IMG/VR virus record: IMGVR_UViG_3300011008_000999
Source: a virus
Taxonomy: Duplodnaviria; Caudoviricetes
Strand: one strand, 5' to 3'
Length of the DNA stretch: 64,000 nt
Shown: piece after piece, positions 2,988 to 54,930 of the stretch
How positions within the stretch are numbered: the first letter of the stretch is position 1
Layout of the letters: every line of letters begins with the position of its first letter
Made by a program: the position numbers and the translations under genes
The notes under the pieces: generated by a model
Told to the model about the DNA's origin: nothing
Seen by the model: the letters and a program-made list of their open reading frames with translations, nothing else
The model's database searches: none

Positions 2988-3005
2988 TTACTGTATCTCC
3001 TTCCA

Positions 3006-16881: not shown

Positions 16882-16985
16882 TTTTTCTCCTTTTTGCCAA
16901 CCTCTTTAATTGGCTTTGGTGATGGTTTTGGTATAGGTTTGACCTTTATACCTCCACAGTTTGATCTAATATTTTTATCATTCAT
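16878..16985 (-). CDS. Small Pro/Lys-rich peptide (35 aa)
   Basis: [35 protein letters not shown]; AAGGAG RBS; ATGA overlap with the MCP start. Confidence 0.5.
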
Positions 16986-16995
16986 AATAACTCCT

Positions 16996-22245: not shown

Positions 22246-22278
22246 ATTATATCACAGATTAGATAAAAAGTAAATAGT
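22246..22278 (-). promoter_or_regulatory. Class I sigmaA-like promoter
   Basis: ACTA-TTTACT-N17-TATAAT with TG. Confidence 0.75.
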
Positions 22279-23438
22279 TAATGTAGCTCTTTGTAGTCCC
22301 AGTCTTTAACTAAACCTTTTGCCTGAAGTTCAGGATCCTGAATCATGGCATTGATCTCTTTAGAAAGATTTGCATCAGGATTATCAAGAAGCTCTACTAA
22401 TCTAGCAGTAATTTCATCTTCAAAAAGTAAGAATTGAGTATCTACAAGATATTTACCATTACTTTTAAGCATCTTCTGTGAAAGAATGATGTTAAGCTGA
22501 AGAATAAGGTCAAGTGATAAGTTCTTATCATTGTCAAGGTGATATAAAAGACGGTTAATAGTACCAGGAACATCAGAAGCATGGAATGTAGTACTAGTAA
22601 TATGACCAGTACGAGCAGCTTCAATAGCTGCACAAATAACCTCTTTATCTCTACACTCACCAACGATGATGATATTAGGGTGTTCACGAAGAGCAGCTTT
22701 AATACCCATTCCAAATGATAAGAAGTCTTTACCTAATTCTTTTTGGCTAATCTTTACGCTATCAGTACTATTGAAAATATTCTCAATAGGATCTTCAAGT
22801 GTAATGAATACCTTATTATCTAGAATCTCCCCTGGCTGAGTGAATGTGTTAATACAAGCTGCCATAGTAGTTGATTTACCAGAACCAGTAGGACCAGTCT
22901 CGTAACAAATACCAGATGACTTTTTGTAAGCTCTCCTAAGGGCTTCTACACATTTCTCATTATAATTGATTGTGTCAAATGTTGGCTGATCTGGTTTAAT
23001 CATACGGAAAGTAGCTACGTTTCTTTCTTCTGAGAATCCAAATGATACACGATAACGATAACAGTTATTTGGATATTTACCGTAGTTAGCACTAGTTTCA
23101 GGAACTCTAATAGATACAGAAGTATCAAGAAGTTTCTGTCTAACATAACCAGCATTTAACTCATTAAGAATGTACTTATCATAAAAGATTGACCATGTAT
23201 CTTTTGTAATAGGTACACAAGGTACTCTAACAATACGACCAAATCTTGAAATATAAGGACATTCAAATGTCTTGATATACAAGTCAGAACAGTTATGTTC
23301 TGTAGTGAAGATCAATAAATCCTCAATTGACAAATTTTGCTTATTAAGATCAAGAATATCGGCATTAGGATTTTCAGGAGTAGATTCCTTTATTTCTTCA
23401 TCTTTTGGTTTTATGTTTAATTTAAGTGTTTCTGCCAT
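22278..23438 (-). CDS. PilT/VirB11-family secretion ATPase
   Basis: GPTGSGKST, ITLEDPIE, ALREHPNIIIVGECRD, AARTGH...TTFHA. Confidence 0.88.
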   Translation of the reverse strand: MAETLKLNIKPKDEEIKESTPENPNADILDLNKQNLSIEDLLIFTTEHNCSDLYIKTFECPYISRFGRIVRVPCVPITKDTWSIFYDKYILNELNAGYVRQKLLDTSVSIRVPETSANYGKYPNNCYRYRVSFGFSEERNVATFRMIKPDQPTFDTINYNEKCVEALRRAYKKSSGICYETGPTGSGKSTTMAACINTFTQPGEILDNKVFITLEDPIENIFNSTDSVKISQKELGKDFLSFGMGIKAALREHPNIIIVGECRDKEVICAAIEAARTGHITSTTFHASDVPGTINRLLYHLDNDKNLSLDLILQLNIILSQKMLKSNGKYLVDTQFLLFEDEITARLVELLDNPDANLSKEINAMIQDPELQAKGLVKDWDYKELH

Positions 23439-23451
23439 TTATCTCACCTCA

Positions 23452-24780
23452 TTATAAGTCTTCACCAATTGCAGGAGACCAAATAGGCTGACCATTAGCA
23501 GTTGTTAAACCGTCAGTATCACCTACTGTAGCACCAGAATTCTGCTGGAAACTAAGAGGGAACATAAGAGGTCCAGTGTGAAGGAACTTTTTAGGTTTCT
23601 TATTGATATAATTATCAAGGAAATCAAGCGCCTGAGTAAGTGACTTAGATACAAGAATATTTCTATCTTTACATTCTGTAATAAGATTCATTACTCTCTG
23701 CTTTAACTGATCCTTAGTCTCAGCATATACAAGAACTGAGCAGTTAAACTGACAAAGTACAGTACCCTGTTCAAGATCCTGAATTGCCATAGTCGCAATA
23801 TCAATATTCTGCTGTGTCTCTTCAATAGATTCAATTTCCGCATTAGCCTCAATAGCCTGATCTCGTTCATATCTATCTGATGCTCTAGTTCTCTTTAACT
23901 TAAGCATAGCATCTTCTTTCTTGAGACACTGAATTGTTGTAACAACATTAGGATAATCCATAGGGAAGTTACAAGTTGAAATCTGAGGTGGGAAAGCTTG
24001 AATATCGAGCATACAACCATAAGTTGTCTGAGGATCAAGACCAAAAATATCCATTCCTTCATTATGCATTTCAAACCATCCAAAGTTATCAGATACAGTC
24101 TGAGTAATGGCTCCCATAATAGAAGTATAAGTCTTCTCGCTGATATAAGAAAGTCTATCATAAGAAATCTCATAACAAGGGAACACTTTACTTACAAAGT
24201 TATAGAATACTAGCTCTCTAGATGCACGTACGCATTTATAGTTAATAGTTCTATAAATATTTTCCTCAATCTTCATGATCTTTTCAGGATCAGCTTTAAG
24301 GTTACCAAGACCAGCAAAACTATTAGCCATATTCTTAGCAATAGCTTTAGCCGTGTCCATAAGAGTAAACTCTTCTACATCAGTAACAGTTGTCTGCTGA
24401 ATATCAATACCAAGCATACAATAAGACTGAAGATCATCTCTTACATTTCTAGTAAACTCAGCAGGCATATCATAATCTTCACGATAGATCTTAATTGTAT
24501 TGTAAAGATTCTCAAGTACGTCCTTACGTCTAATAGTCTTTTCAATACGTTCAATTGTGAACTGAACTGTAGGATTATTAGTAGTAAGGTTAGAGATCAT
24601 ATTAGTGATCTGCTGAACTGTATTATGTACTCCACCAGGTGAGTTTGTAGAATAATTTGATAATGGAATTATATAAAAAGCTGTAATAACACCATTATTA
24701 TAAAGAATGTTATCGCCAATAATGTCAATAGTATTTTGAGCTCTGACATTTATTTTAGCTGAAGTATCTTTCTTAGCCAT
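23452..24780 (-). CDS. VirB4/TcpF-like protein, N-terminal half only (no Walker motifs)
   Basis: Directly follows a TcpE-like gene; layout resembles the Gram-positive VirB4 N-terminal domain; ends where the ATPase domain would begin. Confidence 0.45.
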   Translation of the reverse strand: MAKKDTSAKINVRAQNTIDIIGDNILYNNGVITAFYIIPLSNYSTNSPGGVHNTVQQITNMISNLTTNNPTVQFTIERIEKTIRRKDVLENLYNTIKIYREDYDMPAEFTRNVRDDLQSYCMLGIDIQQTTVTDVEEFTLMDTAKAIAKNMANSFAGLGNLKADPEKIMKIEENIYRTINYKCVRASRELVFYNFVSKVFPCYEISYDRLSYISEKTYTSIMGAITQTVSDNFGWFEMHNEGMDIFGLDPQTTYGCMLDIQAFPPQISTCNFPMDYPNVVTTIQCLKKEDAMLKLKRTRASDRYERDQAIEANAEIESIEETQQNIDIATMAIQDLEQGTVLCQFNCSVLVYAETKDQLKQRVMNLITECKDRNILVSKSLTQALDFLDNYINKKPKKFLHTGPLMFPLSFQQNSGATVGDTDGLTTANGQPIWSPAIGEDL

Positions 24781-24800
24781 ATTATTCTAATTTCCTTTCT

Positions 24801-25202
24801 TTATAGTATAGATCTTACAAAACTTTTAAATTTTATATCAGTTAAATGAAATTCAGTATGTCTGAAATCATTCATGTATACTTTCTTTGGTTTAAAATAT
24901 GCTGCAAGATATTGATACAGTCTATATCCAGCAAACTGCACATACCATAAAGCACATCCAGCACCAATACCAATTACAAGCCAGAAAATTGTCCATGCAG
25001 GTTTAAAATTACCACCAAATGGATTAAAGAAGTTAATTCTAAATGGTATACTTAAAACAGCACCAACTGCAATAATAACTAATGCTACTGGTGCAACAAC
25101 TTTAAGGAATTCAATTGAGAAACCACCAGGAAGCTGATAACCACCAATGTTATAAAGCTTTGTATCTCTTTTCTGAAGAGACGAGTAGTTGTACAAAATC
25201 AT
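24801..25202 (-). CDS. TcpE-like conjugation membrane protein
   Basis: YNYS...KLYNIGGYQLP, two TM segments, YFKPKKVY tail. Confidence 0.6.
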   Translation of the reverse strand: MILYNYSSLQKRDTKLYNIGGYQLPGGFSIEFLKVVAPVALVIIAVGAVLSIPFRINFFNPFGGNFKPAWTIFWLVIGIGAGCALWYVQFAGYRLYQYLAAYFKPKKVYMNDFRHTEFHLTDIKFKSFVRSIL

Positions 25203-32988: not shown

Positions 32989-33828
32989 TTAGATTAATTT
33001 CATAAAATCTTCTTCAGTAATTACTGGAATACCAAGATCTTTAGCTTTTTTAGATTTGCCGGAAGTAGAGGTCTTATCATTACAAATGAGATATGTAAGA
33101 TTCTTACCAACAGAAGCAATTTTACCACCATTAGCTTCAATAATCTTAACCATATCTTCTCTCTTCATTGAAAGAGAACCGGTAATACAAAAACTCATGT
33201 TATCGAGCTTACCGCCAACAACCTTCTGCTTAACTGTGATGTATTTCATAACGTCATTGATCTCAGTGTAATCGAATTCAGCAATAAACCTTGCAGTAGT
33301 AGCACCAATACCATTCATTGAAGTGAAATCAAACTTAGTATTAATTGCATTCATGAAATTTTCCCATGTCTCAAACTTATCTGCAAGAAGTGTAGAAGTC
33401 TGTTTCTCAACATTAGGAATACCAGCTGAAGCGATGATCTTCCAAAGTTCAAGTGAAGTAGGAATACCTTCAAGGATCTTATCTACAGAACCTTCTCCGT
33501 AACCTTTCATATGAATCCATTCATCTCTATGTTCCTTAAGAGTGAAGATATCACTCATCTGAGTAAGCCAACCAACTTTAATGAGATCTCTTACAGTTGC
33601 AGTGGACATAGATTCAATATCAAGTCCATGTGCACCAATGAAATGAAGAAGTTTTCCTTCGATCTTAGCACCGCAATTAGGATTCTGACACATAAGAACC
33701 TCAGTATTATATTTCTTCTCAATCTTTACATCACCACCACATCTAGGACAAGTAGTAGGAAGAAGAATTGGATTACCGTAAGCGGCCTCAAGTTTTTTAT
33801 CATTAACTTTCTTCAAAAGAGTGTTCAT
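32989..33828 (-). CDS. ligA: NAD-dependent DNA ligase, C-terminal subunit (Zn finger, HhH, BRCT)
   Basis: PTTCPRCG...CQNPNC zinc finger; HhH repeats; BRCT FCITGSL...YLICND...SGKSKKAKDLGIPVITEEDF. Confidence 0.9.
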   Translation of the reverse strand: MNTLLKKVNDKKLEAAYGNPILLPTTCPRCGGDVKIEKKYNTEVLMCQNPNCGAKIEGKLLHFIGAHGLDIESMSTATVRDLIKVGWLTQMSDIFTLKEHRDEWIHMKGYGEGSVDKILEGIPTSLELWKIIASAGIPNVEKQTSTLLADKFETWENFMNAINTKFDFTSMNGIGATTARFIAEFDYTEINDVMKYITVKQKVVGGKLDNMSFCITGSLSMKREDMVKIIEANGGKIASVGKNLTYLICNDKTSTSGKSKKAKDLGIPVITEEDFMKLI

Positions 33829-33860
33829 TGGTTGACCTCCATAATTTTTATTATGTAATA

Positions 33861-33893
33861 ATTATAACACAGGTAGAATCATTTGTAAATAGT
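33861..33893 (-). promoter_or_regulatory. Class I promoter of the ligase C-terminal gene
   Basis: ACTA-TTTACA-N17-TATAAT with TG. Confidence 0.8.
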
Positions 33894-33895
33894 TT

Positions 33896-35440
33896 TTAGT
33901 TTAAACTATTCACCAAAATATCAGTAATTCGATCATACAACTTCTTATTTTCTAAATGATTCTTAACATAAGTATCACTTGAAAGATGCTTTTTACAACA
34001 TTCTTTGATAATCAGCTCATCATCAAAAATCTCATTAAGTGTTTCAACTTTAAGATCTTTCTGATCATCACTATTAGGAAGTCTACGAATACGACCAAGT
34101 GTACGAATTATAAAGTTTTCAATTTCATTTGCAATATTACGATCATATTTATGATCTCCAGATGACACCAGAGGTAACTCATTAAGGATAATATATAAAT
34201 CATTAATGGTATGTTTATGACGTCTCAGTGAGTCAGTTATGGACATCTGGGTATCACCTAAGTTATATTTATAGTAGTCACCATCAAAATCATAAGTATA
34301 AAATACAGCAAGAATATCTGAATAGTATCTAATATTTGAATAGTGCTTATATGCAATTTCAGGAATTTCAAATCCATATCTTGTTTTAAGGGCAAACAAG
34401 TAACCTCTATCATGGAATGCTATGTCTCTATTTTTAGCAGTATATTTCCATAAGTTTGCTGCATATAAGAGTGATAAGAATCCAATATCATCAAGATCAG
34501 TGAATACTCTTATAGGTGCAGTATAATCAAGAAGAGTCTGGTTAGCAATATAGAGCAGTCTCTTATATCCATCAATAAGTTCTACTCTACCAGTCTTAGT
34601 ATTCATATTGATTGTGATAGGCTGTGCTTCAAGATTCTGGAAATATGCTAAAGTTCCCATTTTATTGTTAGCATAAATGATAGCATCAATAGCGTTGTTA
34701 AATGCAGATTCAGCTTCTTCTTTTGCTAAATGTCTATACATAGTATCTACACAAACGGTAAATACATTTTTTACATGATTAACATAAGAATTGACTTTTA
34801 TAGATATAGAATCTAATCCACCATAAATATGACTATAAGGTGAATTAACTGCAACATATATATTATTAAAGTCAATATTATTTACTTCATTCAGTTCAAT
34901 ATCTCTAGGAAGTACTTTATATTTGTAATTTGCAATTGTATATTCAGGATAATGCTCAGCTAACCAGTTATTAACAAATGTTTGTACCGCTTCAGTAACA
35001 GCGTCTTGAATACTACGATCATACTGTAAAGTATGAATTAAATGAAATTTAGCATTACTAAGTGCTACCTCACGTTCAGGTCTAATACCAAGTTTCTTAG
35101 AATCATATTCACCATCGTTTATCTTCTCAACTGTGACTGTAGAATCAATATCAGTCATTTTTTTAAATAATTCGTTGAATAGATTATCATACAGTTTTTG
35201 TGCTAAAGCAGTAGCATCAGTTTCTGCATATTTAAGTAAAGCTGCATGAATTTCAGCAATTACTTTATCATCATCTTTACCAGGCTTAATATCATATTCA
35301 GGCTTGATATTCGATCTTGTATGAAAACCTTTAAGAATGTCAAGAGGAGTTAGCTGATTCTCTTCAATAATTCTATTTCTAAGATCAGCTAACTTCATCT
35401 CTTTATATTCATAATTGGCATTTGCTAATAAACTAAACAT
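33896..35440 (-). CDS. Protein with a central ParB/Srx-like motif
   Basis: QPITI...VELIDGYKRL. Confidence 0.5.
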   Translation of the reverse strand: MFSLLANANYEYKEMKLADLRNRIIEENQLTPLDILKGFHTRSNIKPEYDIKPGKDDDKVIAEIHAALLKYAETDATALAQKLYDNLFNELFKKMTDIDSTVTVEKINDGEYDSKKLGIRPEREVALSNAKFHLIHTLQYDRSIQDAVTEAVQTFVNNWLAEHYPEYTIANYKYKVLPRDIELNEVNNIDFNNIYVAVNSPYSHIYGGLDSISIKVNSYVNHVKNVFTVCVDTMYRHLAKEEAESAFNNAIDAIIYANNKMGTLAYFQNLEAQPITINMNTKTGRVELIDGYKRLLYIANQTLLDYTAPIRVFTDLDDIGFLSLLYAANLWKYTAKNRDIAFHDRGYLFALKTRYGFEIPEIAYKHYSNIRYYSDILAVFYTYDFDGDYYKYNLGDTQMSITDSLRRHKHTINDLYIILNELPLVSSGDHKYDRNIANEIENFIIRTLGRIRRLPNSDDQKDLKVETLNEIFDDELIIKECCKKHLSSDTYVKNHLENKKLYDRITDILVNSLN

Positions 35441-35465
35441 ATAGTTACCTCCATATTATATTGTA

Positions 35466-35498
35466 ATTATAACATGGAAATAGGATAATGTAAATAGT
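35466..35498 (-). promoter_or_regulatory. Class I sigmaA-like promoter
   Basis: ACTA-TTTACA-N17-TATAAT with TG. Confidence 0.8.
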
Positions 35499-35506
35499 TT
35501 TTATTA

Positions 35507-36595
35507 CTAAAATTCAACTAATTCGTCATTAAAGTATAATTCAAAATCATTTTGGAATATTACTTCATCGCCAGTAGGATTATCAATACTGTAACTACAT
35601 ATTACTACAAATGCATCTGAATGATAGTCAGTATATAATGAACTAGTCATAGTTAAAATATTTTCAATATCTCCTATATAGTTACACTTAAACTTTTTAT
35701 CACCATCAATTCCTAAAGTATCTTTTAATAGTGTAGTCGATCCATCTAAAGTATAGATTGCATAAGTAATTTGTCCTGTAGCAGTATTGTTTTCAGGATC
35801 TATTCCAAATGAAGATACAGTTGTCCATACCTTATACTGTTTACCATCAATAGTCACTTCAGTTGCATGCTCACGTTCAAATTCATCGTCATCAAGAGAG
35901 AATCCAATCATATTTGAAGAGTCAGTCTTTTGAATTGAACCATCTGGAACAAATGTACCAGCATAAAATTCTTGTAGTTGCTCTTCAGATCCAACAATCT
36001 GAGTCATAAGTAATTGTAATCCAATAATTCCATCTCTAGCAGTATCGCTAAGTTCAATTACTTGTCCTTCTTCATCTAAAACTACATCTTCAATGTCACT
36101 GATTTCCCAGCCAGACTGTAACATAGAATTAAGACTATCTATATTAAGTTTATCTAATGATTCAATAAATTTTTCAGGACTTGCACTTTCAAGTTGTGCA
36201 AAAGTAGTTTCATATGAATTAGATTTTAGTGCAGCATATTTAAGTCCTAAATATACTGAAGAAAGTGGTGCTGAGCCGTACTTATAGTTTTCATAGTCTT
36301 TAGGTGCAGATAAAGTACCTACATATGAAAAAGGTTCTTTTTCTTCTACAGGTTCCTCTATTACTTCTTCATTATTTTCTTCCTCAGTATTATCTGTAGG
36401 CACAGGTTCTTCTTCCTTTGCTTGAGGACCATTAACTGCATAATTGTGTTCAGTAGTAACTTCAGATTCAGGTTCTTCTGTAACTGGATTTACAAAGTCA
36501 TGAATAGCTCCACTACATCCAGTAAGCATACTTATTGTAAGTATACTGCATATTCCTATTAAAAGTTTCCTTTTCATGATTTTACCTCTCCACAT
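35507..36595 (-). CDS. Lipoprotein (HNYAxN motif)
   Basis: Lipobox LTGC; acidic tether; probable start MKRKLL. Confidence 0.75.
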   Translation of the reverse strand: MWRGKIMKRKLLIGICSILTISMLTGCSGAIHDFVNPVTEEPESEVTTEHNYAVNGPQAKEEEPVPTDNTEEENNEEVIEEPVEEKEPFSYVGTLSAPKDYENYKYGSAPLSSVYLGLKYAALKSNSYETTFAQLESASPEKFIESLDKLNIDSLNSMLQSGWEISDIEDVVLDEEGQVIELSDTARDGIIGLQLLMTQIVGSEEQLQEFYAGTFVPDGSIQKTDSSNMIGFSLDDDEFEREHATEVTIDGKQYKVWTTVSSFGIDPENNTATGQITYAIYTLDGSTTLLKDTLGIDGDKKFKCNYIGDIENILTMTSSLYTDYHSDAFVVICSYSIDNPTGDEVIFQNDFELYFNDELVEF

Positions 36596-37197
36596 TTTAT
36601 TGTCATATTTTTATCTACATTATGTGTTACATAATAGTCAATAATATGTTTAGGAAAACCTTTGTTAGTAGAAAAGATCAATTCATAAGTTTGGTCTTTT
36701 TTATAGCCTAATTCCTTCATATCTGCAGCAATTCGTTTAAGTACTTCAATATAAAGCGGAAAACGTTCTTCTACATTTGCAGATACAATCTTATTCCAGT
36801 CTTCCTTAGTTGATTGTTCTATATAATTATCGTTAAGTTTGGTTATAAGTATTTTAGGACCACCTTTGAAATAACCAAACAAGTCGTTATTTTCATTATT
36901 CAGTTTTGCAATTTTAGCATGCAAGATTAAATGCTCAATACGGTTACAGTACACTAATCTATCTGCTTTTTGACATTCAGGGTACTGTCTTTCCGCGCCT
37001 CTATTACTAAGTCCGGCAATGTGATCTTCATCTATATGATGACATTCTAAACCTTCTTTTGTTCTAGAAGCCATGATCCTACCATTAACGAAATAATCAC
37101 TAGTGGCAGGTCCGTACTTCTTCAATAGTACCTGAACATATTCGTCATAACTCATATTCCAAACTTTGTTCAGTAACATAATTTTTTTATTCCTCAT
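36574..37197 (-). CDS. HNH-like endonuclease
   Basis: ECHHIDE...LVYCNRIEHLILH. Confidence 0.55.
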   Translation of the reverse strand: MRNKKIMLLNKVWNMSYDEYVQVLLKKYGPATSDYFVNGRIMASRTKEGLECHHIDEDHIAGLSNRGAERQYPECQKADRLVYCNRIEHLILHAKIAKLNNENNDLFGYFKGGPKILITKLNDNYIEQSTKEDWNKIVSANVEERFPLYIEVLKRIAADMKELGYKKDQTYELIFSTNKGFPKHIIDYYVTHNVDKNMTIKCGEVKS

Positions 37198-37263
37198 AGT
37201 AGCTACTAAATAATTGATTCTTGTGTTTCATTAATGATTGGATTTATTTTTCTCTCCTTTTAT

Positions 37264-37647
37264 TTAGCATGCACAAAGTTTGTTATACTTAAGCATGAAA
37301 ATACCTACTCCATCTTTACTAATCTTGACTACATTATTATCTTTTATGTAAAACTTGTCAATATTAGTGTCACTGTTAAATGTATAAATGTTAAACTCGC
37401 CTTCGGTACATTTATCATAAGGAGTATCTTCCATTACAAACAAAAGCTCAGATAAATTTACATAGTCATAATCATCATCTACATTATTGTTATATAGTAG
37501 AAATAATCTATCTAGTATATCAAATTTTCTTTCTAGTATTTTTCTTTTATATTCTACATAAGAACATATTAACAAAACTGTTATTATTAAAACAATAAAT
37601 ATTACGCATGATAAAATATTCATGTTGTCATTCCTTTCCATAAACAT
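37264..37647 (-). CDS. Hypothetical membrane protein
   Basis: N-terminal TM segment. Confidence 0.5.
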   Translation of the reverse strand: MFMERNDNMNILSCVIFIVLIITVLLICSYVEYKRKILERKFDILDRLFLLYNNNVDDDYDYVNLSELLFVMEDTPYDKCTEGEFNIYTFNSDTNIDKFYIKDNNVVKISKDGVGIFMLKYNKLCAC

Positions 37648-37685
37648 AAATAAAGGCTGTAACCTTTGATTAGGCTACAGCCGTA

Positions 37686-37701
37686 TTATTATTAAATAGC
37701 T
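37686..37701 (-). promoter_or_regulatory. Class II motif
   Basis: AGCTATTTAATAATAA. Confidence 0.55.
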
Positions 37702-38247
37702 CTATAATGGCTTATCACTAAATCTAAACGTCTTATACTCTGCCTTAGCGACCATTTTAGAAGTACTATATAGTATTGGTACAGCAAATTCGTCATATCC
37801 AAGTCTAGGATTATATGTCTTACCTAAGTCATATAACTGTTCTCCAGTTAGTTCTGGAATATCCTGGAATGACGACCTGTAAATAGAACTATACGCATTT
37901 GTAATATTATATTCAATAGATGGAATTACATCTGGGAGATTAATAAAGCACCATTTATGTTCTATAAAATCAATATCATGATCGTATTTAATACACCAAT
38001 AATTTCCAACTTCGCTCAAAATACAAAAAGCTTTTCCGGCTTCTACAATAAACATAGTTTTAGAATTATTATTAGGTAGTTCTTTTGCATTTTGACTACA
38101 AGTCGACCATCCAGTGGTACCAACTATACTTTTTTCAAAATAGTTTTCGTCATTAGCTGCATACACTTTGAAACTAAACAGTAAACTAATAATACCTACC
38201 ATGATTATAACAATAATCACAGTAGATATGATTTTCTTAATTTTCAT
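37702..38247 (-). CDS. Secreted protein with an SH3-like segment, possibly truncated
   Basis: Signal peptide; GKAFCILSEVGNYWCIKY; FINLPDVIPSIEYNITNA. Confidence 0.45.
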   Translation of the reverse strand: MKIKKIISTVIIVIIMVGIISLLFSFKVYAANDENYFEKSIVGTTGWSTCSQNAKELPNNNSKTMFIVEAGKAFCILSEVGNYWCIKYDHDIDFIEHKWCFINLPDVIPSIEYNITNAYSSIYRSSFQDIPELTGEQLYDLGKTYNPRLGYDEFAVPILYSTSKMVAKAEYKTFRFSDKPL

Positions 38248-38273
38248 AATTTCCTCACTTTGTATAGCTTGTA

Positions 38274-38765
38274 TTACGATTCACTTTCGTAATTATGTCT
38301 ACGCAAAAACTTGACTAAATCATCAAGCATATCGTCTGCTTTTTGAATATCCTCTTTAGTAACATAAAGTTCTTTATATCTACCTAAAGCAGACCATCTA
38401 CATAACATAACAGAATAACCTGTCTGTAGATCTGTTAATGTACCAGAAATTTCACGTAATTCTGGATTCTTTTCAGATAAAGACTCAAGAATTTTGGCAT
38501 TATTTGCTACAAAATGTCCTTCTCTAAAATTCTCATAATAGTATTTTATTAGACCTTTTAATGATAATTCTATAGATTGTGCTAACATATAACAAGCCCA
38601 GTTAATGTCAGCTGCTTCAGCTTTATTACAATAAATAGTGTCTAATAAAGGCTCGGTAATGTTCCGAGCCTTGCAAGCATTTTGTATAAGCATTCTGCCT
38701 TCGTTTCGTAAGTCTTCATCACTTCTTTTAGGTGGTGGTCCACCTCTATGATGTGGCTTACCCAT
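38274..38765 (-). CDS. HEPN domain protein (MNT-HEPN pair)
   Basis: ACYMLAQSIELSLKGL...GH...GRY; overlaps the MNT-like gene. Confidence 0.7.
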   Translation of the reverse strand: MGKPHHRGGPPPKRSDEDLRNEGRMLIQNACKARNITEPLLDTIYCNKAEAADINWACYMLAQSIELSLKGLIKYYYENFREGHFVANNAKILESLSEKNPELREISGTLTDLQTGYSVMLCRWSALGRYKELYVTKEDIQKADDMLDDLVKFLRRHNYESES

Positions 38766-39069
38766 AGATAATGTCTCCTTTGTTGACTATATTCATAATG
38801 TTACTTGAGTTATGCTGGCAGTTAATAATAACAAGATCGAATTTACCATCAGTAATATCATCTACCTTACAGAAAAGATCAAGTAGAGCATTATCATCAT
38901 CTGCGTCTTTAGGATTAGTCATTTGAACAGCTATCTCTAAATAATCATCTGCTGTAGTTTCTTCTGTAATGCTTTTACCGAATACGATCAATTTATTATA
39001 TCTGTCAGGATGCTTTTCGATGTAATCTTTAATTGCATCTACCTGAGGTTGTTTAATAGGATTTACCAT
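38758..39069 (-). CDS. Minimal nucleotidyltransferase (MNT)-like protein, degenerate
   Basis: LIVFGKS...DDYLEIAV...FDLVII...GDIIY. Confidence 0.6.
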   Translation of the reverse strand: MVNPIKQPQVDAIKDYIEKHPDRYNKLIVFGKSITEETTADDYLEIAVQMTNPKDADDDNALLDLFCKVDDITDGKFDLVIINCQHNSSNIMNIVNKGDIIYG

Positions 39070-39072
39070 GCA

Positions 39073-39252
39073 TTACTCCTTATCTACGGCAGTAATATCA
39101 ATCTTAATCATCTGACCGTCTTCGTAACTAATTTCTTTAAGACCTTCTTTCTGAACATATACAGGTCCAATAAGAACTTTACCGTCTACAGGAACTTCCT
39201 GAAATCTAACAGTATTTTTAGTTTCTTTGTCGAACTCGAATAGTCTTTCCAT
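39073..39252 (-). CDS. Small hypothetical protein (59 aa)
   Basis: Translated by hand: MERLFEFDKETKNTVRFQE...IGPVYVQKE; AAGGAG RBS. Confidence 0.65.
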   Translation of the reverse strand: MERLFEFDKETKNTVRFQEVPVDGKVLIGPVYVQKEGLKEISYEDGQMIKIDITAVDKE

Positions 39253-39263
39253 ATTTGTCTCCT

Positions 39264-39845
39264 TTACTGATCTAGTAATCTGTTATCAACATTAGGTAAT
39301 ACTCCACCGCAATTTTTACAACTTGTATATTTAGGTGGATTCATAGTACCACAGTATGGACACTGAACTGGTTTATACTTTAATTTTAATGTATTAAGTT
39401 CAGTTTCTTTATTTTCTTCTATTTTATTTTGTGCATTAATTGCCTTATCTGCAATTCTTTCATCATGATGTTTTACTACACCAACAATAACACGTATAAT
39501 TATGACTGGTAGAATCAGCATAATAAATCCTAAGATGCTAACTACAACTATCCACCAAAGGATATATCCATCTTTTTCTACATTAAATTCTGGTTGTTGT
39601 GCAATTCCGCTAACTGCACATAATGCTCCATATCCTATAAACATGACTGGTAGAAGCCATCCAAAAATTCTAGACCAAATATTACGTGGTGCACCTCTTT
39701 TTCGTCTGACTTCAGTTCTGCCTATAGTACTATCATAGTATTTTTCAGTGTATTTGTTATGATGAACAATTAAACTTATGATAAGTGCAATAATATCAGC
39801 TAAAATAATATAGCCAAAAATATTTGTAATTAAATCAAAGTTCAT
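39264..39845 (-). CDS. Membrane protein with C-terminal zinc ribbon
   Basis: Three TM segments; CPYCG...CKNCG. Confidence 0.65.
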   Translation of the reverse strand: MNFDLITNIFGYIILADIIALIISLIVHHNKYTEKYYDSTIGRTEVRRKRGAPRNIWSRIFGWLLPVMFIGYGALCAVSGIAQQPEFNVEKDGYILWWIVVVSILGFIMLILPVIIIRVIVGVVKHHDERIADKAINAQNKIEENKETELNTLKLKYKPVQCPYCGTMNPPKYTSCKNCGGVLPNVDNRLLDQ

Positions 39846-39850
39846 TTTGT

Positions 39851-40789
39851 TTATCCTTCATAATTTGAAATAAATTCGATTATAGGTGTATCGATATACT
39901 TAGCGAGAAATCCTTCATTCTCAAATACAAGATCAGACTGTCTAATCTCTTCGTTCTGAAGCTTTCTCATGACAAGCAGAAGATCCTGATTATTGAAACA
40001 CTTAAAATCGTAAGAACCATCAAACAATTCCTTAATATATCCAATAATCTTGTTATTCTTCTTAACTGCACTAAGTGTAAATTGCTCAACTCTGATAGGA
40101 ACTTCTACTGTAGGAAGTACTTCTTCAATATGAGCAAGGATCACAAGAGGATTCTTATTTACGTCAATAACGATCTCATCATTACTGAAGAATACTACAC
40201 TTTCAACATCAATTCCAGCAGCAAGCAGTTTAGTAAGAATAGTATCAGTGATATGTTTCTCGTATGTGATAACTCTAGAAGGATTGCAGTTACCCATAAT
40301 AACTTCTCTGATGTACTTACTGCTAACGATATACTCACTATCAGTAAACTTACGTATGAAATCCTCCCACGTCTCAGCATTACCAAAGATAGTTGGATCA
40401 TAAGCCTTAAGTGAGCTGAAGTTTGCCTTCTTCATATCAAGACTGATAAAAGACTTACCAATATTATTAGGCTTATAAATATCCTTAGATGGAAGATTCT
40501 TATTCTTAACTGCAAACAGATTCATGTCAAGTGCATTAAATTTATTGAAACCTTCACTTGACTTAATAAAGTCCATTGCTGCTTCCTTAGTAGACTCATA
40601 CATATCAAAGTATTCCTTTTCATTAGGAAACTTTTCTACTCCATTACAGAAAGCTAGCCATTTAGATTTGGTACCATAGAATTTATCAAGCAGTTCAAGA
40701 CGCTCAGTAAAATAAGGTTCTGCATAAAGTCTTATCGGAATCTTACAATCTCTAACAAATCTTTCTTTAAGTTTATCAGTCATTTTCAT
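39851..40789 (-). CDS. Uncharacterised protein with polymerase-palm-like motifs
   Basis: FISLDMKKANF (motif A-like), SKYIREVIMG, FFSNDEIVI (motif C-like). Confidence 0.45.
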   Translation of the reverse strand: MKMTDKLKERFVRDCKIPIRLYAEPYFTERLELLDKFYGTKSKWLAFCNGVEKFPNEKEYFDMYESTKEAAMDFIKSSEGFNKFNALDMNLFAVKNKNLPSKDIYKPNNIGKSFISLDMKKANFSSLKAYDPTIFGNAETWEDFIRKFTDSEYIVSSKYIREVIMGNCNPSRVITYEKHITDTILTKLLAAGIDVESVVFFSNDEIVIDVNKNPLVILAHIEEVLPTVEVPIRVEQFTLSAVKKNNKIIGYIKELFDGSYDFKCFNNQDLLLVMRKLQNEEIRQSDLVFENEGFLAKYIDTPIIEFISNYEG

Positions 40790-40826
40790 ATTTATCTACC
40801 TCCATAGAGTTTTTTAGATTATATTT

Positions 40827-40859
40827 AATATAACACAGATTTATTAGTTTGTAAATAGT
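40827..40859 (-). promoter_or_regulatory. Class I sigmaA-like promoter
   Basis: ACTA-TTTACA-N17-TATATT with TG. Confidence 0.7.
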
Positions 40860-40870
40860 TTCTAAACATA

Positions 40871-40906
40871 GTTTAAGCCAGACCTATAAAAGCATCTGGC
40901 TTAAAC
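40871..40906 (-). terminator. Terminator-like hairpin ending the ligase N-terminal operon
   Basis: GTTTAAGCCAGA...TCTGGCTTAAAC inverted repeat. Confidence 0.55.
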
Positions 40907-40941
40907 ATTTATGGAGGTATTTTAAATGAAAGATGGTAAGC

Positions 40942-41358
40942 TTAGTTATATTCCTGAAGTTTGTATCGTTTTCCAAACCAACCTTCAGTAAATGGAGATT
41001 TTTTAATATCAGCTATAAAAGCTTTAATCTCCTCATCTGTAGCATAAATATATATATCACCATATTCATGCCACGAAATATCTTCATCTTCTTCAAGATC
41101 ATCTGTGTATCTATCTTGCCATTCTTCTAAAATATAGAGCATACCGCCTGTATCTAAGAAGAAGTTATACATATCACATTCTTCTTGAGTATTAACGTCT
41201 TTAGCTACTAAATGAAGTGATCTACCTAAACCATCTATTTGACATTTAACCATATCATCATAGCTAAGATTATAATATCTATTAAATAGATCATCTTCTG
41301 TAGCATTAGGTGTATTAAAATAAATTCTAAGTTTTTCTATTTCATTTATCATAAGCAT
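40942..41358 (-). CDS. Hypothetical protein
   Basis: 138 aa ORF. Confidence 0.55.
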   Translation of the reverse strand: MLMINEIEKLRIYFNTPNATEDDLFNRYYNLSYDDMVKCQIDGLGRSLHLVAKDVNTQEECDMYNFFLDTGGMLYILEEWQDRYTDDLEEDEDISWHEYGDIYIYATDEEIKAFIADIKKSPFTEGWFGKRYKLQEYN

Positions 41359-41708
41359 TCTCCGCAGCAGCCATAATCAACATTTTCATTCATAAGATCA
41401 AGACAATCTAATACAACTTGATGTGGATCGTCAACAATATCAGTTAGTGCTTTATATACATCGTCAACATGATATTTATTGAGTACCCAAGGTAATGTTT
41501 GTACATCACCAGTATCTGTATTATAGTAACCACCGGAAGACCAAAATCTAGGAAAATCACAACTATTCTTAGAACCAAATTTCCAAGTGTTACCATCTAT
41601 CATTACAGTAAGAGTACCATCACAGTACATCAAACCTTCTTCGTATTTTATGAATTGAATATTCATCTCTTTTCTGCCTTTGCAATCTGAGGAATTATCA
41701 TATTTCAT
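41349..41708 (-). CDS. Hypothetical phage-like protein
   Basis: FWSSGG and C-terminal GCCGEC motifs. Confidence 0.55.
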   Translation of the reverse strand: MKYDNSSDCKGRKEMNIQFIKYEEGLMYCDGTLTVMIDGNTWKFGSKNSCDFPRFWSSGGYYNTDTGDVQTLPWVLNKYHVDDVYKALTDIVDDPHQVVLDCLDLMNENVDYGCCGECL

Positions 41709-42408
41709 AATATTTCCAATGTAAATTATTAGTTTTATTACGTGTACCTAAACAACATTCACTTATTTTAGAACTATTGCTATTAGTTTCTTTTGCTGCT
41801 TGTGTTATAGAATCATATACTATTCCAGTATCTATACATATAACTTTATGTCGTTTCTTGACTGCAGCAGCTTCAATTCGTTTTTTATGAATAATTTTCA
41901 TTTCATCTGGATGTTCTTTTTGCCAATTTAAACAATCCTTAACTTTCTCCTTTGACCATTCTGGATTATTTTTCATTTTAATCTTCATAGCATTTGTAGC
42001 ATTCGGAGAAATTATTTTTATTCCACGTGTAAATTTATTATATTCTGGTTTTAAAGTCTTAATATAATGTTCTTCTATATTTTTAGCTTCACTAATAGTA
42101 CAGGTAGCTTTAGATAGTTCAATATGAGTAAAACAATTTTCTCCATATTTTTCAATGTCTCGAGAAAGTTCTAAATTAAATCCGTACCCTTTTCCATTTT
42201 TCCATCTAGCTTCAATAGATTTTTGAGTAGTAGCTCCAACATACCGTTTATTATTAACTGTACATGTGTGCGTATAAAATATAAAATCATATTTATTAGT
42301 ATCTTCATCAGATTTTAATATAGGTTTTTCATTATGTATATGCACTAAATGTCTATTTAATGAAGTTCTACAAGAAAAACATTTATTACAAATCAAACAT
42401 TTTTCCAC
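41698..42408 (-). CDS. Free-standing GIY-YIG homing endonuclease with C2H2 finger and NUMOD1-like tail
   Basis: CLICNKCF...LNRHLVHIH; FIFYTH...KRYVGAT...RW; KVICIDTGIVYDSITQAAK...ISECC. Confidence 0.8.
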   Translation of the reverse strand: MEKCLICNKCFSCRTSLNRHLVHIHNEKPILKSDEDTNKYDFIFYTHTCTVNNKRYVGATTQKSIEARWKNGKGYGFNLELSRDIEKYGENCFTHIELSKATCTISEAKNIEEHYIKTLKPEYNKFTRGIKIISPNATNAMKIKMKNNPEWSKEKVKDCLNWQKEHPDEMKIIHKKRIEAAAVKKRHKVICIDTGIVYDSITQAAKETNSNSSKISECCLGTRNKTNNLHWKYYEI

Positions 42409-43502
42409 TAGTTATTCCTTTCAGCTTTTATTACCTGTGGTATAATACAATTAGCTTTTATTACCCAAATCTTCTGACCAATAAATGGTTTCTCACCAAG
42501 GAGTTCTTTCATAATAGAAATATTATGCATTGATGCATTCTGAACAGTAGTACCATCAATAATTACTGGTTTGAAAGTAGCTACAGGTGTAATAGCACCA
42601 GTACGTCCAACTGACCAAGTAATTCCAGTAAGTTCAGTTTCAAACAGTTCATCATAGAACTTGAATGCAAAACCACCGCGGAATGAATGTTCATCATGAC
42701 CTTTTGCCATGTAAGAAGCATAATCATTGATCTTATATACAAGACCATCAATAGGATATTTCTTAGCGGCTGCTTTCTGTCTCATTCTTTCCTGTTGAGC
42801 TTCAAGATTCTCAGTATTAGTATATTCCCAATCAACTACTACAAACTTGAGATCTGCAAGTTTCTGAAGCTTAACATCAAGATCATCTTCACCTGTGATC
42901 ATATCCCATGCAACAAATGTAAGCATTCTTCTCTCGCATTCATCAGGATTATCAAGTCGAATAGATCCAGATGCAAAGTTTCTAGGATTCTTAAACATCG
43001 AGCTGAACTCTTCAAAGTCATCATACTTACAAATAACTTCACCATCTATAACGATTGTATCTTTAACGGAAATTGTCTTAGGAATCGAAGGAAGTCTCTT
43101 TGCATTTTCAGTGATGTCTTCACCAACTTTACCATTTCCACGAGTTTCAGCAGAAACAAGCTTTCCATTCTCATACTTAAGAGAACAGGTAAGGCCATCC
43201 ATCTTCAACATAGTAATTGACTTTTCCTTCAACCACTTCTTAAGAACGTTATTATCTTTGGTTTTATCAAGAGAGAGCATCAGATGGTTATGAGTAACCT
43301 TCTTAAGAGAGTTCTGAATATCAAACTGAATTGTTGCTGAAGGAGACTTAGGATCAATATAACCAGTCTCTTCCTCATAAGCACAACACTCAAAGTAAAG
43401 AGCGTCCCAAGCTTCATCACTAATCTCAGGATTTCCTTCATCATACCTCTTAGTGTAATAATTCAGCTTCTCAATATTCTGAGTATATTCTTCTCTCGTC
43501 AT
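42408..43502 (-). CDS. ligA: NAD-dependent DNA ligase, N-terminal subunit (adenylation and OB domains)
   Basis: ISDEAWD, MLSLDK, KMDG active site, TRGNG, NPRNFASG, DGLVYK, AFKF, GRTG, IIPQV; GGAGG RBS supports start at 43502. Confidence 0.93.
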   Translation of the reverse strand: MTREEYTQNIEKLNYYTKRYDEGNPEISDEAWDALYFECCAYEEETGYIDPKSPSATIQFDIQNSLKKVTHNHLMLSLDKTKDNNVLKKWLKEKSITMLKMDGLTCSLKYENGKLVSAETRGNGKVGEDITENAKRLPSIPKTISVKDTIVIDGEVICKYDDFEEFSSMFKNPRNFASGSIRLDNPDECERRMLTFVAWDMITGEDDLDVKLQKLADLKFVVVDWEYTNTENLEAQQERMRQKAAAKKYPIDGLVYKINDYASYMAKGHDEHSFRGGFAFKFYDELFETELTGITWSVGRTGAITPVATFKPVIIDGTTVQNASMHNISIMKELLGEKPFIGQKIWVIKANCIIPQVIKAERNN

Positions 43503-43541
43503 TGTAAAACCTCCGTACAAGTTATTATTTATTATAGTATT

Positions 43542-43574
43542 ATTATAACATAGACTTATATAATTGTAAATAGT
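43542..43574 (-). promoter_or_regulatory. Class I promoter of the ligase N-terminal gene
   Basis: ACTA-TTTACA-N17-TATAAT with TG. Confidence 0.8.
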
Positions 43575-52195: not shown

Positions 52196-52972
52196 TTATT
52201 TGTATTCAACATCGATAATGTAAAGACCATCATTATATCCGACGAAGTTTATATCATATTCTTCAAATGAATAATACAACATAAAACTACCCTTCTTTGC
52301 ATAACTTCCAGACTTAGTATTCTGACCAAACTGCTCATAAATAGATTCTTTTGCACTACCAAAGTTAATCCAATTAGGTAATGCACAAGTCATAAGTTTG
52401 TCACCAGAATTATTACCTGCCTGAAGTTTGTAACCTACACATTTCGTATTAGAAATAGTAGTTTCAGTATCAGACTTAAACTTAAAGATAATATTACCAT
52501 CACCAGTAGTAGGTGTAGCATGTACTTCAAAATATGTACCTACTTCTTCACCAGTAACATCTTTCTTTATAAGATACTTACCAACTTCTTCAATATAGAA
52601 CGGTCCAAACTTTTCAGATAAATACATATAATCACAAGGAAATGCAGTTAATTTTCCATCAATAGAAATAGTATTCATGTCAATAACTTCATTCATATTG
52701 ACATCGTCTACTACATTATACATCATTTCCTTTGGAACAATATCTAAATGTTCCCAAGTATCTTCTTCCTCTTCTGGTTCTTCTACAACTACAGTAGTAG
52801 GAGTTACGTCTTCAGTAGTTTCCTCTTCTACAGGTTTTTCTACAACTTCATTCTGAGCATAATTATGTTCTTCAGGATAGATTTCTTCAGGTTCATCATC
52901 TTTCTTACCACACGCAGCCATCGAAACTGCCATAAGAAGAGATAGACCTAATATTAAGATCTTTTTCATCAT
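52196..52972 (-). CDS. Lipoprotein (HNYAxN motif)
   Basis: Lipobox MAAC; acidic tether. Confidence 0.75.
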   Translation of the reverse strand: MMKKILILGLSLLMAVSMAACGKKDDEPEEIYPEEHNYAQNEVVEKPVEEETTEDVTPTTVVVEEPEEEEDTWEHLDIVPKEMMYNVVDDVNMNEVIDMNTISIDGKLTAFPCDYMYLSEKFGPFYIEEVGKYLIKKDVTGEEVGTYFEVHATPTTGDGNIIFKFKSDTETTISNTKCVGYKLQAGNNSGDKLMTCALPNWINFGSAKESIYEQFGQNTKSGSYAKKGSFMLYYSFEEYDINFVGYNDGLYIIDVEYK

Positions 52973-54930
52973 TTTCCTCCATTCTTCTTACTCTTTTTAC
53001 GAGTAGGCTTAGTGGCCTTGATTTTGTCTTTTAATGCTTCAATAAATGTAAAGTTCGAATCTTTTTCAGATGATAAATCAAATGTATTATCAACATTATC
53101 TACAACAGTATCAATATTTGCAGATTTATCACTAATCATTTCAATAAACAAACTGTCAAGAATAGAACTCATACAATATACATAATAAATCATACAACTT
53201 TCAGTCTGACCAGTTCTACAGATACGATCCTCTACCTGAACCATATCAGAAGGTACCCAAGCATAGTCAATAATAATCATTGTATGTGCAGCAGTAAGTG
53301 TAATACCTACACCACCAGCTTGCATATTTAAGATACATACAGTTTTCTTTTTAGCCTGAAAATCATCAATAGCTTGTTGTTTTGCTTGATCAGACATACC
53401 ACCTCTAATTTCACAACAAGTATCTTTGAAATGATCTCTAAGAATATCAGCAGAATCTACAAAATTAGTTACAATAACTACACTTTCTCCAGCATCTATA
53501 AGAGTCTCAGCTAAATCAATTGCTGCATCAATCTTATACAAACTTAACATCTTTCTACCAGTCATAGCAAGTCCCATGTAAGTATCACCATCTTCTGGTT
53601 CATAAAGACGTTTTTCAATATTCACATATTCTCTCTTAAAATGAGGATCAAGAGGAATAAACTGTCTTTGTTTCTTAAGGTTAGGAAGTACATCTTTCTT
53701 AAGACGTCTAACCATTAAGTTACTAAGTAAAGCATGTAACTGATCTGAGTTAGAATTACCAGAAAAGTCCTTACCAAAGTAAGTTTCCTTAGGATCACAG
53801 AACTTATTTGCATAATTAAGGAATGCCCACTTACTATTAAAGTCAAAAGCTTCACACTTGAGCATCTTTAAGATATTATACAAATCAAGATTGTGAGAAG
53901 GAAGTGGAGTACCACTAAGAAGATAACAGTATTCAACTGCATCTGCAAGTTCAAGTACTGCTTTTGCTCTCTTACTAGTAGGATTTCCCCAGTTATTTAC
54001 AGCTTTACAAGCATGACATTCATCTACAAAGATACAGTTAAAGTATTTCTTAAAGTCGTCTAAGAACTTACTTACTGAACCATAGCCAATAATTGTCCAA
54101 TCTTTACCAAAATGTGGTGCATCAGCATTAAGCTGAATCTGTACATCTGCATCAGGAGTTACATTCTTGATTTCTCTATACCAGTTTAATCTAAGAGATG
54201 CAGGACAAATAACCAATTTTGGTATATTTAAACTAGTTCCAACTAAGACTGAAATAAATGTCTTTCCACAACCCATTTCATGTCCAAGTAGAACTCTTTT
54301 CTTTTTAATGATCTTTGTAGCATCTTCAATCTGGAAGTCATAAGGTGTAAAAGGTAAAGATAACTTACTTAAATCTACCAGACTATTCTCAGACTTATTC
54401 AAGTAGAATAATCCAGCTTCAATATCATCAGGATCATACTTAATCATAAGTCTATCAAGTAATTTAGTAAAGTTATCTAGCTGATCTCTTGAAATAGATA
54501 TAACTAACTTATCAGGATCAGTTTTACTATCCACATACTTAAGACAATTCTTATTCTTTGCATCCCAAAGATCAGATACAAGATTTTTGTCATTAATATT
54601 AACTTCATACTCATAGAGTCCAAACTTATTGACTCTACCTGTATTCTTACATTCAACACTTGTAACAGTCTTCTTATAATCTGTTACTGGATGTTCAAAT
54701 CCAATAATAGAACCACCATTAGTAGCTCTAAAATATTGCATACGAAGTTCTCTTGCTTCTGCCTTCTCGTCTATAGGATAGTTACAAAGACAACAAGCAA
54801 CCAGATATAAGTCATAATCATTTGGATTGTCTAAAGATGCTATCTTAAGCATCATACGCTCATCAGCTAATTTGTATACTTTAGCATCTAGCATCTCCTT
54901 ATTTTTCTTTAACAAATCTAACATGACCAT
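52969..54930 (-). CDS. SNF2-family helicase (HARP/SMARCAL1-like)
   Basis: HEMGCGKT, DECH, LSGTP, GGVGITLT, QVEDRICRTGQ. Confidence 0.9.
   Translation of the reverse strand: MVMLDLLKKNKEMLDAKVYKLADERMMLKIASLDNPNDYDLYLVACCLCNYPIDEKAEARELRMQYFRATNGGSIIGFEHPVTDYKKTVTSVECKNTGRVNKFGLYEYEVNINDKNLVSDLWDAKNKNCLKYVDSKTDPDKLVISISRDQLDNFTKLLDRLMIKYDPDDIEAGLFYLNKSENSLVDLSKLSLPFTPYDFQIEDATKIIKKKRVLLGHEMGCGKTFISVLVGTSLNIPKLVICPASLRLNWYREIKNVTPDADVQIQLNADAPHFGKDWTIIGYGSVSKFLDDFKKYFNCIFVDECHACKAVNNWGNPTSKRAKAVLELADAVEYCYLLSGTPLPSHNLDLYNILKMLKCEAFDFNSKWAFLNYANKFCDPKETYFGKDFSGNSNSDQLHALLSNLMVRRLKKDVLPNLKKQRQFIPLDPHFKREYVNIEKRLYEPEDGDTYMGLAMTGRKMLSLYKIDAAIDLAETLIDAGESVVIVTNFVDSADILRDHFKDTCCEIRGGMSDQAKQQAIDDFQAKKKTVCILNMQAGGVGITLTAAHTMIIIDYAWVPSDMVQVEDRICRTGQTESCMIYYVYCMSSILDSLFIEMISDKSANIDTVVDNVDNTFDLSSEKDSNFTFIEALKDKIKATKPTRKKSKKNGGK

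Follow-up and report, generated by a model that had tools for sequence, protein, structure and literature searches.

The DNA analysed here is a 64,000-nucleotide (nt) window of the IMG/VR virus record IMGVR_UViG_3300011008_000999 (the whole stretch, to which all coordinates refer). It encodes an NAD+-dependent DNA ligase (LigA) as two separate genes, an N-half and a C-half, whose products probably work together as one two-subunit enzyme. The window lies in a 331,944-bp virus record with direct terminal repeats. Pfam Terminase_6N and HK97 Phage_capsid gave no match in the whole genome in two quick checks, and we therefore term it a phage-like element, 'phage' being the IMG/VR label. All genes of the region are on the minus strand. 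The ligase genes and the features around them were as follows.

42408..43502, minus strand: ligase N-half, 364 amino acids (aa); ATG start, TAG stop at 42408-42410; domain Ia, adenylation (nucleotidyltransferase, NTase) domain and OB domain
32989..33828, minus strand: ligase C-half, 279 aa; N-terminal tail, four-Cys Zn finger, HhH and BRCT domains
41698..42408, minus strand: free-standing GIY-YIG homing endonuclease, 236 aa; N-terminal C2H2 finger, C-terminal NUMOD-like module
43542..43573, minus strand: promoter-like box 5' of the N-half; CTATTTACA, 17-nt spacer, TG-extended TATAAT
43510-43514, minus strand: GGAGG ribosome-binding site of the N-half
33861..33892, minus strand: promoter-like box 5' of the C-half, same class as the N-half box
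33836-33840, minus strand: GGAGG ribosome-binding site of the C-half
35466..35497, minus strand: third perfect box of that promoter class, upstream of a 514-aa open reading frame (ORF)
37655..37682, minus strand: intrinsic-terminator-like hairpin, 11 pairs (6 GC) followed by a T run, mid-spacer

The one-polypeptide layout of LigA is absent: the two ORFs lie 8,579 nt apart, each with its own ribosome-binding site, start and stop. The N-half matched Pfam DNA_ligase_aden (PF01653, 1e-42) and DNA_ligase_OB (PF03120, 1e-20, residues 294-366), and it matched LigA structures in the PDB down to 2e-40, covering the first ~390 residues of the structures. It ends in ...IIPQVIKAERNN and TAG, with the stop coming 7 residues past IIPQV. 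The C-half matched BRCT (5e-15) and HHH_2 (2e-5), also has the four-Cys ribbon, and aligned with residues 397-657 of T. filiformis LigA (PDB 1dgs, 3e-21) and 401-668 of E. coli LigA. On the NCBIfam LigA model (664 positions) the N-half spanned positions 2-384 and the C-half 393-664, with no overlap and an 8-position gap. The scores were 272 and 140 bits, compared with a full-length cut-off of 369. Each half stays under this curated cut-off, and the presence of a ligase is therefore under-called in such genomes. An earlier reading of the window (the original prediction) had placed a split LigA at these two ORFs, with which the domain matches agree.

Catalytic and Zn residues were conserved in the halves. 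The KxDG motif of the N-half reads K100-M-D102-G103, and K100, D102 and G103 were invariant in 20 sequences; the Zn cysteines of the C-half (C27, C30, C47 and C52) were invariant in 41. The first ~65 residues of the N-half align with LigA domain Ia, with Y20 and D33 invariant and D29 almost so. By eye, D29/W32/D33 correspond to E. coli D32/Y35/D36 and Y20 to H23, and the Y22 position is Arg. An alternative N-half start, TTG at 43520, lies upstream of the ATG and is less likely, because GGAGG stands 7 nt before the ATG. The whole 332-kb genome holds one adenylation domain and one C-half, and no ATP-dependent ligase domain was found in it. The two halves are the sole ligase genes of the element.

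Conservation of the split in relatives

Eight loci were opened: the window, two IMG/VR relatives (G001, 394 kb with direct terminal repeats, and G002, a 32-kb fragment) and the loci L009, L010, L012, L015 and L016. Both halves were kept in all eight, on the same strand, with the N-half upstream of the C-half. Identities of the N-half and C-half to the window were 93% and 85% for G001, and 68% and 72% for G002. The C-half search returned more than 110 clusters of stand-alone 258-286-aa proteins with 57-99% identity, on contigs of up to 532 kb. The C-half is missed by annotation pipelines; one relative in a Bacilli metagenome-assembled genome carries the NCBI name 'hypothetical protein'.

Between the window and G001, the ratio of non-synonymous to synonymous substitution rates (dN/dS) came to 0.090 in the N-half and 0.134 in the C-half, at unsaturated dS values of 0.69 and 0.74, respectively; more distant pairs gave 0.1-0.3. 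Both halves are under purifying selection. The split layout was found in independent IMG/VR, ENA and Logan assemblies, which excludes an assembly error. Fused versus split alleles and dN/dS in related replicons had been proposed as checks along with the original prediction, and both speak for a conserved two-gene LigA. Two weaknesses it had raised, decay of the C-half in relatives and misassembly at the junction, were not borne out. The comparisons thus confirmed the split as real and indicate that it is old and ancestral to a large clade of 300-530-kb elements.

The break was mapped by aligning the concatenated halves with the nearest fused ligases. In five of the eight loci (G002, L009, L010, L012 and L016) there is no tail at the break, and the two ends sum to the native OB-Zn linker with zero extra residues, for example ...IIPQVAKAEKSVN / MKFIEIPTTCPVCG. 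The C-half of the window, G001 and L015 carries a 17-residue N-terminal tail, the lineage-specific form of the short new N-terminus that had been predicted. Neither half has an intein-sized extension at its ends. Split-intein junction motifs were also absent: no Cys/Ser-initiated tag follows IIPQV, no HN-C/S/T precedes the Zn finger, and the 17-residue tail of the window subclade lacks them as well. Because the ends are native linker, there is no room for split-intein pieces. Rejoining by an intein or a three-piece intein was rejected on this junction anatomy, which agrees with the earlier observation that no intein termini are visible.

The CTATTTACA-N17-TATAAT box occurred nine times in the window compared with 0.04 expected, on the minus strand only, which marks it as a promoter class that the element uses generally and not for the ligase in particular. 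In five of six loci checked (window, G001, G002, L009 and L012), each half had its own TTTACA-17-TATAAT box. Given the separate promoters and the spacer terminator, the halves appear to lie in separate transcription units, and the putative terminator argues against both being on one transcript. Co-expression is plausible but, judging from the boxes, not specific. The GGAGG sites and same-class promoters that the original prediction saw on both halves were thus recovered, with the class turning out to be general in the element.

A probable two-subunit enzyme and its alternatives

A two-subunit LigA is already known from T5-like phages, which the original prediction had missed. The T5 genes ligA and ligB carry the annotations subunit A and subunit B (PMC3632103), and PDB entries 9hu3 and 9i5i each hold a 'DNA ligase (NAD+)' of 339 aa with a 'DNA ligase subunit B' of 248 aa. 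Literature searches found no description of these two structures, which are cited here by their entry molecule names. In the T5-like phage DaisyDussoix, the A and B genes lie ~200 nt apart and match the chains at 2e-104 and 6e-81; the T5-type family counted 1,707 near-length A matches and 238 B matches. The window N-half matched chain A of 9hu3 at 1e-21, and the C-half matched chain B at 5e-6. As T5 LigA/LigB is known and solved, the split ligase described here is not a first.

In a Shuman-lab domain-deletion study, LigA without the Zn finger and HhH domains reportedly self-adenylylates and fails to seal nicks. Domain Ia confers NAD+ specificity on LigA, and the NTase domain is needed for all steps (PMC4797296, PMC7470946, PMC10504179). 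The enzyme forms a C-shaped clamp that contacts DNA by way of NTase, OB and HhH, in which the Zn finger sets the position of HhH relative to OB and NTase-HhH contacts close the clamp (PMC7470946, PMC10504179, PMC4797296). The HhH domain supplies DNA binding that NAD ligases cannot do without (PMC7470946). The BRCT domain is dispensable for sealing but helps binding (PMC4797296, PMC7470946, PMC10504179). From these domain roles, sealing would need both halves, and the N-half would be able to self-adenylylate.

The best overall explanation, which we consider probable, is an NAD+ ligase composed of two polypeptides, each transcribed and translated on its own. Of these, the N-half (Ia, NTase and OB), which bears the catalytic lysine, would react with NAD+, and the C-half (Zn finger, HhH and BRCT) would serve as the DNA-binding clamp arm. 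On nicked DNA the two most likely come together without a covalent bond, held by the native OB/Zn and NTase/HhH contacts, in the manner of T5 LigA/LigB. Prediction of the complex gave a score of 0.44 (best control 0.00), with at least 63% contact agreement between runs and a partner predicted local distance difference test value (pLDDT) of at least 80. Of 80 solved complexes, 58 reached the mark applied, as did 2 of 110 mismatched pairs; at scores of 0.60 or below, just 7 of the 80 solved complexes did so, together with both passing mismatches. As structures of fused LigA and of the T5 heterodimer exist, the pass may echo these and not be evidence. Multimer structure prediction, another check proposed earlier, was thus passed at its mark and lends weak support to a heterodimer.

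Several observations pull in the other direction. The complex prediction is weak (0.44) and returned no interface. Most clade members lack added docking tails, which are essential in Aeromonas phage Aeh1 NrdA (PMC3045599); without tails, association must use native inter-domain contacts, which are small in the absence of DNA. The promoter class common to both halves is a general one, with its nine copies in the window. Terminase-6N and HK97 capsid genes went unfound in the two quick Pfam checks, and the topology tests described below do not reject a joint group of the clade with the T5-type ligases (p 0.27-0.68).

Three other accounts of the two genes were weighed. That the layout is a misassembly, or that the genes are two remnants of a dying ligase, has a negligible probability: independent assemblies from three sources share it, the frames are intact, the catalytic residues are invariant and dN/dS is 0.09-0.13. 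Hardly more probable is a covalent reunion of the halves, by protein trans-splicing (split intein) or RNA trans-splicing, since five loci show the native linker with no extra residues or junction motifs and each half has its own promoter, ribosome-binding site, start and stop. The N-half could instead be a minimal NAD+ ligase or adenylyltransferase on its own, the C-half having drifted to, for example, a HhH/BRCT DNA-binding or recruitment role. This would fit with halves in different transcription units up to 8.6 kb apart, with the missing docking tails and weak complex support, and with N-only LigA forms elsewhere, some of which have other N-terminal extensions. It is improbable nonetheless, because all eight loci hold both halves, without exception in one order and orientation, because purifying selection on them is similar and the Zn cysteines and LigA-type HhH/BRCT are kept, because HhH DNA binding is essential in NAD ligases (PMC7470946), and because the T5 enzyme was solved as an A+B pair. 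Of the original two-subunit proposal, the conserved two-gene LigA under purifying selection stood; an origin by endonuclease insertion was not supported as stated.

Origin of the split, the endonuclease and the gap

In an exhaustive N-half search, the nearest relatives outside the clade were fused 630-660-aa ligases with 46-54% identity. The fused protein P0125 reached 50-52%, versus 33-37% for T5-type sequences. In its locus (L013), a ThyX-like gene and the gene beside it, a PolA-like gene, an SNF2 helicase (47%) and one further gene have counterparts in the window. The clade came out monophyletic (95-100) in free trees, next to the fused proteins P0125, P0148 and P0160. Support for the clade with fused ligases was 98 (N-half, LG+G4), 90/97 (N-half, C20), 99 (C-half, with P0148) and 94/99 (concatenated), within a group of mostly fused ligases at 98. 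The T5-type sequences formed their own clade (100) elsewhere, beside a different fused protein (95).

N-only LigA forms were scattered over the LigA tree, with at least 14 changes; the 14-19 inferred N-only origins may include truncated or mis-called genes, such as P0131 on a context-free 1.2-kb contig. Five proteins (P0170, P0189, P0190, P0199 and P0254) have a C-terminal adenylation+OB module that ends at the same hinge, behind a 135-290-aa N-terminal extension, and seem to combine the N-half into another domain architecture. A permuted fusion was considered for them and rejected, as the extensions had no Pfam match and are not HhH/BRCT.

The GTG start of the GIY-YIG gene shares one base (G) with the TAG stop of the N-half (TAGTG), the overlap noted in the original prediction. 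Its ORF matched Pfam GIY-YIG (2e-4), PHROG 314 homing endonuclease (5e-15) and TIGR01453 (8e-14). Orthologues in L009, L012 and G002 were 90%, 64% and 48% identical, with invariant catalytic residues. A weak second GIY-YIG-like match in the whole genome lies at G000:C1:326742-326978. On the clade tree the gene was patchy, being present in L012, G002, L009 and the window and absent from L010, L016, L015 and G001. Between the window and L009, its dS was 0.23 (92% nt identity), compared with 1.13 for the N-half and 1.45 for the C-half. Sliding-window identity showed the N-half tracking G001 (0.82-0.95) down to ~42560; from there to ~41700 the window was 0.88-1.00 identical to L009 and just 0.3-0.5 to G001.

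41700..42560, minus strand: mosaic block, read as a co-conversion tract; last ~150 nt of the N-half and the whole GIY-YIG gene

Homing with co-conversion yields such a mosaic of the N-half end and the endonuclease gene. From the low dS, the patchiness and the mosaic tract, the GIY-YIG gene is mobile and arrived in this genome long after the ligase split, which the copy in the window therefore did not create. A GIY-YIG homing endonuclease targeting the 3' end of the N-half gene probably moves in and out of the gap by homing.

Two accounts of how the split arose compete with the one we favour, a fission in this clade independent of T5. The clade and the T5-like phages might have inherited one ancient LigA fission, spread horizontally as a two-gene cassette, with the fused relatives outside. 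The clade's break and that of the T5-type (...VIPCIVERVYD / MKIEIPTQCPSCG) are no more than 1-3 residues apart. Approximately unbiased (AU) tests, run on 35-44-row sets in place of the full 146-row tree, did not reject a joint T5-type and clade group (p 0.68 and 0.58 for the N-half, 0.37 for the C-half, 0.27 concatenated), and the constrained N-half tree scored 3.8-10.9 log-likelihood units better than a quick free search. The concatenated constrained tree, however, was 21.6 units worse, and the free trees join the clade with fused P0125/P0148 and set the T5-type apart (100). The higher identity to P0125, its syntenic locus, the linker being an obvious permissive cut site and the scatter of N-only forms speak against common descent of the cut, which we regard as unlikely. 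As the AU tests gave no rejection, independence from T5 is graded as favoured, not shown; the most likely ancestor is a fused ligase resembling the one in syntenic L013. The original prediction had attributed the cut to endonuclease insertion. A GIY-YIG or other homing endonuclease would then have cut the fused linker in the clade ancestor, with later loss in some members, as endonuclease insertion did in Aeh1 nrdA/mobE (PMC3045599). The L012 layout (N-half, GIY-YIG, C-half with overlapping stop/start codons), the orthologues at the junction in four of eight loci and a second endonuclease-like gene (C2H2 and Vsr-like motif) at the same position in G002 are in line with this. It remains doubtful all the same, though less so than common descent with T5: the window copy is a recent transfer (dS 0.23 versus 1.1-1.5) missing from G001, L010 is the earliest-branching sampled relative and has adjacent halves with no endonuclease, L015 and L016 have gaps without one, most members lack endonuclease-derived tails at the break, and nothing lies between the adjacent A and B genes of T5-like phages.

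The gap between the halves differed widely in length and content.

L010: 67 nt, empty
L012: 0.69 kb, GIY-YIG only
L016: 0.86 kb, MNT-like and HEPN
L015: 1.17 kb, MNT-like, HEPN and a 77-aa ORF
G002: 4.5 kb, mixed cargo
G001: 7.4 kb, mixed cargo
L009: 7.5 kb, GIY-YIG and about 16 small ORFs
Window: 8.6 kb, 13 ORFs

On this comparison the gap appears to be an insertion hotspot that collects selfish and accessory genes, among which the MNT-HEPN pair and others would have accumulated until the halves came to lie 8.6 kb apart in this genome. More speculatively, and with about the same standing as an endonuclease origin, the OB-Zn hinge is a recurrent fission point (at least two cuts, in T5-like phages and this clade, perhaps many) and the gap a protected landing site, opened again and again by a homing endonuclease that recognises the N-half gene at its 3' end. 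MNT-HEPN, other endonucleases and envelope genes would build up there as cargo, since a deletion running into either half would cost the element its sole ligase. In that case hypervariable islands in giant phage-like genomes would be anchored by split essential genes, and LigA would tolerate full genetic uncoupling of its catalytic and clamp modules.

Beyond the endonuclease, 12 further ORFs were counted in the window gap, close to the dozen or so unrelated genes reported before. These include:

33829..41697, minus strand: variable cargo, 12 further ORFs; content differs strongly among relatives
39851-40789, minus strand: 312-aa ORF
38274-39069, minus strand: overlapping MNT-like (103 aa) and HEPN (163 aa) genes, candidate type VII (MntA/HepT-like) toxin-antitoxin module
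37702-38247, minus strand: M15-peptidase gene copy, 181 aa, apparently truncated
36574-37197, minus strand: SAV1803-related protein, 207 aa (NCBIfam SAV1803-related domain, 7e-32, above cut-off)
35507-36595, minus strand: lipoprotein gene
33896-35440, minus strand: 514-aa ORF

The MNT-HEPN pair was the commonest gap resident across the sampled clade. HEPN matched Pfam at 6e-7, and MntA_antitoxin at 0.003, under cut-off; PADLOC gave no match for eight spacer proteins, this pair included. Orthologues lie in the gaps of G001 (L005:13300-14092), L009 (4596-5450), L015 (8886-9666) and L016 (9155-9935). In L010 the pair (10809-11595) stands just downstream of the C-half, outside the gap, and rearrangement as well as insertion therefore shaped the gap. 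The gap genes were mostly common to the window and G001, which lacks GIY-YIG and four other window ORFs; the G002 gap shares with the window only a displaced GIY-YIG orthologue. The 181-aa ORF shares 75% identity with the N-terminal ~177 residues of a 547-aa Peptidase_M15 protein of G001 (L005:14119-15762), which suggests gene decay within the gap; the terminator hairpin lies directly 3' of it. The 207-aa ORF, whose G001 counterpart is 91% identical, shows by eye an HNH-like CHHID...N...H pattern.

Other genes occupy the position directly after the N-half in relatives. G001 encodes a 234-aa protein there (L005:11099-11803) with an HEFGH (HExxH) motif and no Pfam match. The 330-aa ORF of G002 (L006:11094-12086) resembles the GIY-YIG protein in its N-terminal C2H2 finger and bears ELDIYLP...LAIEYNG, Vsr/DUF559-like by eye, at its C-terminus, with a weak zinc finger as its sole Pfam match. 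Possibly this is another kind of homing endonuclease that exploits the same site.

Outside the gap, the genes for a 133-aa protein, a 442-aa protein and a PilT/T2SSE-like ATPase (22278-25202, minus strand) lie about 8 kb downstream of the C-half in the window and 1-4 kb downstream in the relatives compared (L009, L010, L012, L015 and L016). The region after the C-half has therefore expanded too. The SNF2 helicase of the window has 653 aa (52969-54930); its L010 orthologue (798-3593) has 931 aa with matches to Intein_splicing (weak) and HNH_3, so an intein-bearing allele exists in a relative. L010 also carries an IS605 OrfB/TnpB-like gene at 16251-17426.

Comparison with known systems

Four aspects are new. 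The clade is probably a second large lineage with the same cut, independent of T5. It shows full genetic dispersal of LigA halves under separate promoters. Its gap sizes form a graded series (adjacent halves, endonuclease alone, toxin-antitoxin-like pair, 4.5-8.6 kb of cargo) that appears to record the turn into an insertion hotspot, and the window seems to have caught a homing event in the act, with its co-conversion tract. The catalytic and DNA-clamp modules of LigA can thus be genetically uncoupled and separately promoted across 300-530-kb elements. The series is useful for studying the interplay of gene fission, homing endonucleases and cargo accretion, and a natural two-piece NAD+ ligase offers a template for split-enzyme engineering.

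The split ligase keeps all six modules and the catalytic residues of single-chain bacterial LigA (E. coli, 2owo; T. filiformis, 1dgs/1v9p) and of fused phage LigA (Clostridium phage c-st and the metagenomic relatives P0125/P0148). It differs from them in that the polypeptide is broken between OB and Zn finger. T5 LigA/LigB (Demerecviridae) shows the same partition into Ia-NTase-OB and Zn-HhH-BRCT, cut in the same OB-Zn linker, with an own start and stop for each half and no intein. It differs in the adjacency of its genes (~200 nt), whereas in the window 8.6 kb with 13 genes, a terminator and separate promoters come between the halves. T5 subunit A also has a shortened Ia region, unlike the window N-half, and sequence identity of the clade to the T5-type is just 33-37%. 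T5-type ligases belong to ~110-kb proteobacterial phages, those of the clade to 300-530-kb low-GC elements.

Free-standing homing endonucleases have split phage genes before, as in the T4 topoisomerase genes 39/60 with mobA. In Aeh1 nrdA-a / mobE / nrdA-b, endonuclease insertion made the split and supplied tails essential for activity (PMC3045599). The ligase resembles both in that an essential DNA-metabolism gene occurs as two genes with an endonuclease gene directly after the first half, and in that its product would likewise reassemble non-covalently. Unlike in Aeh1, the present endonuclease copy is younger than the split, most clade members lack added tails, and the gap, from 67 nt to 8.6 kb, holds many unrelated genes.

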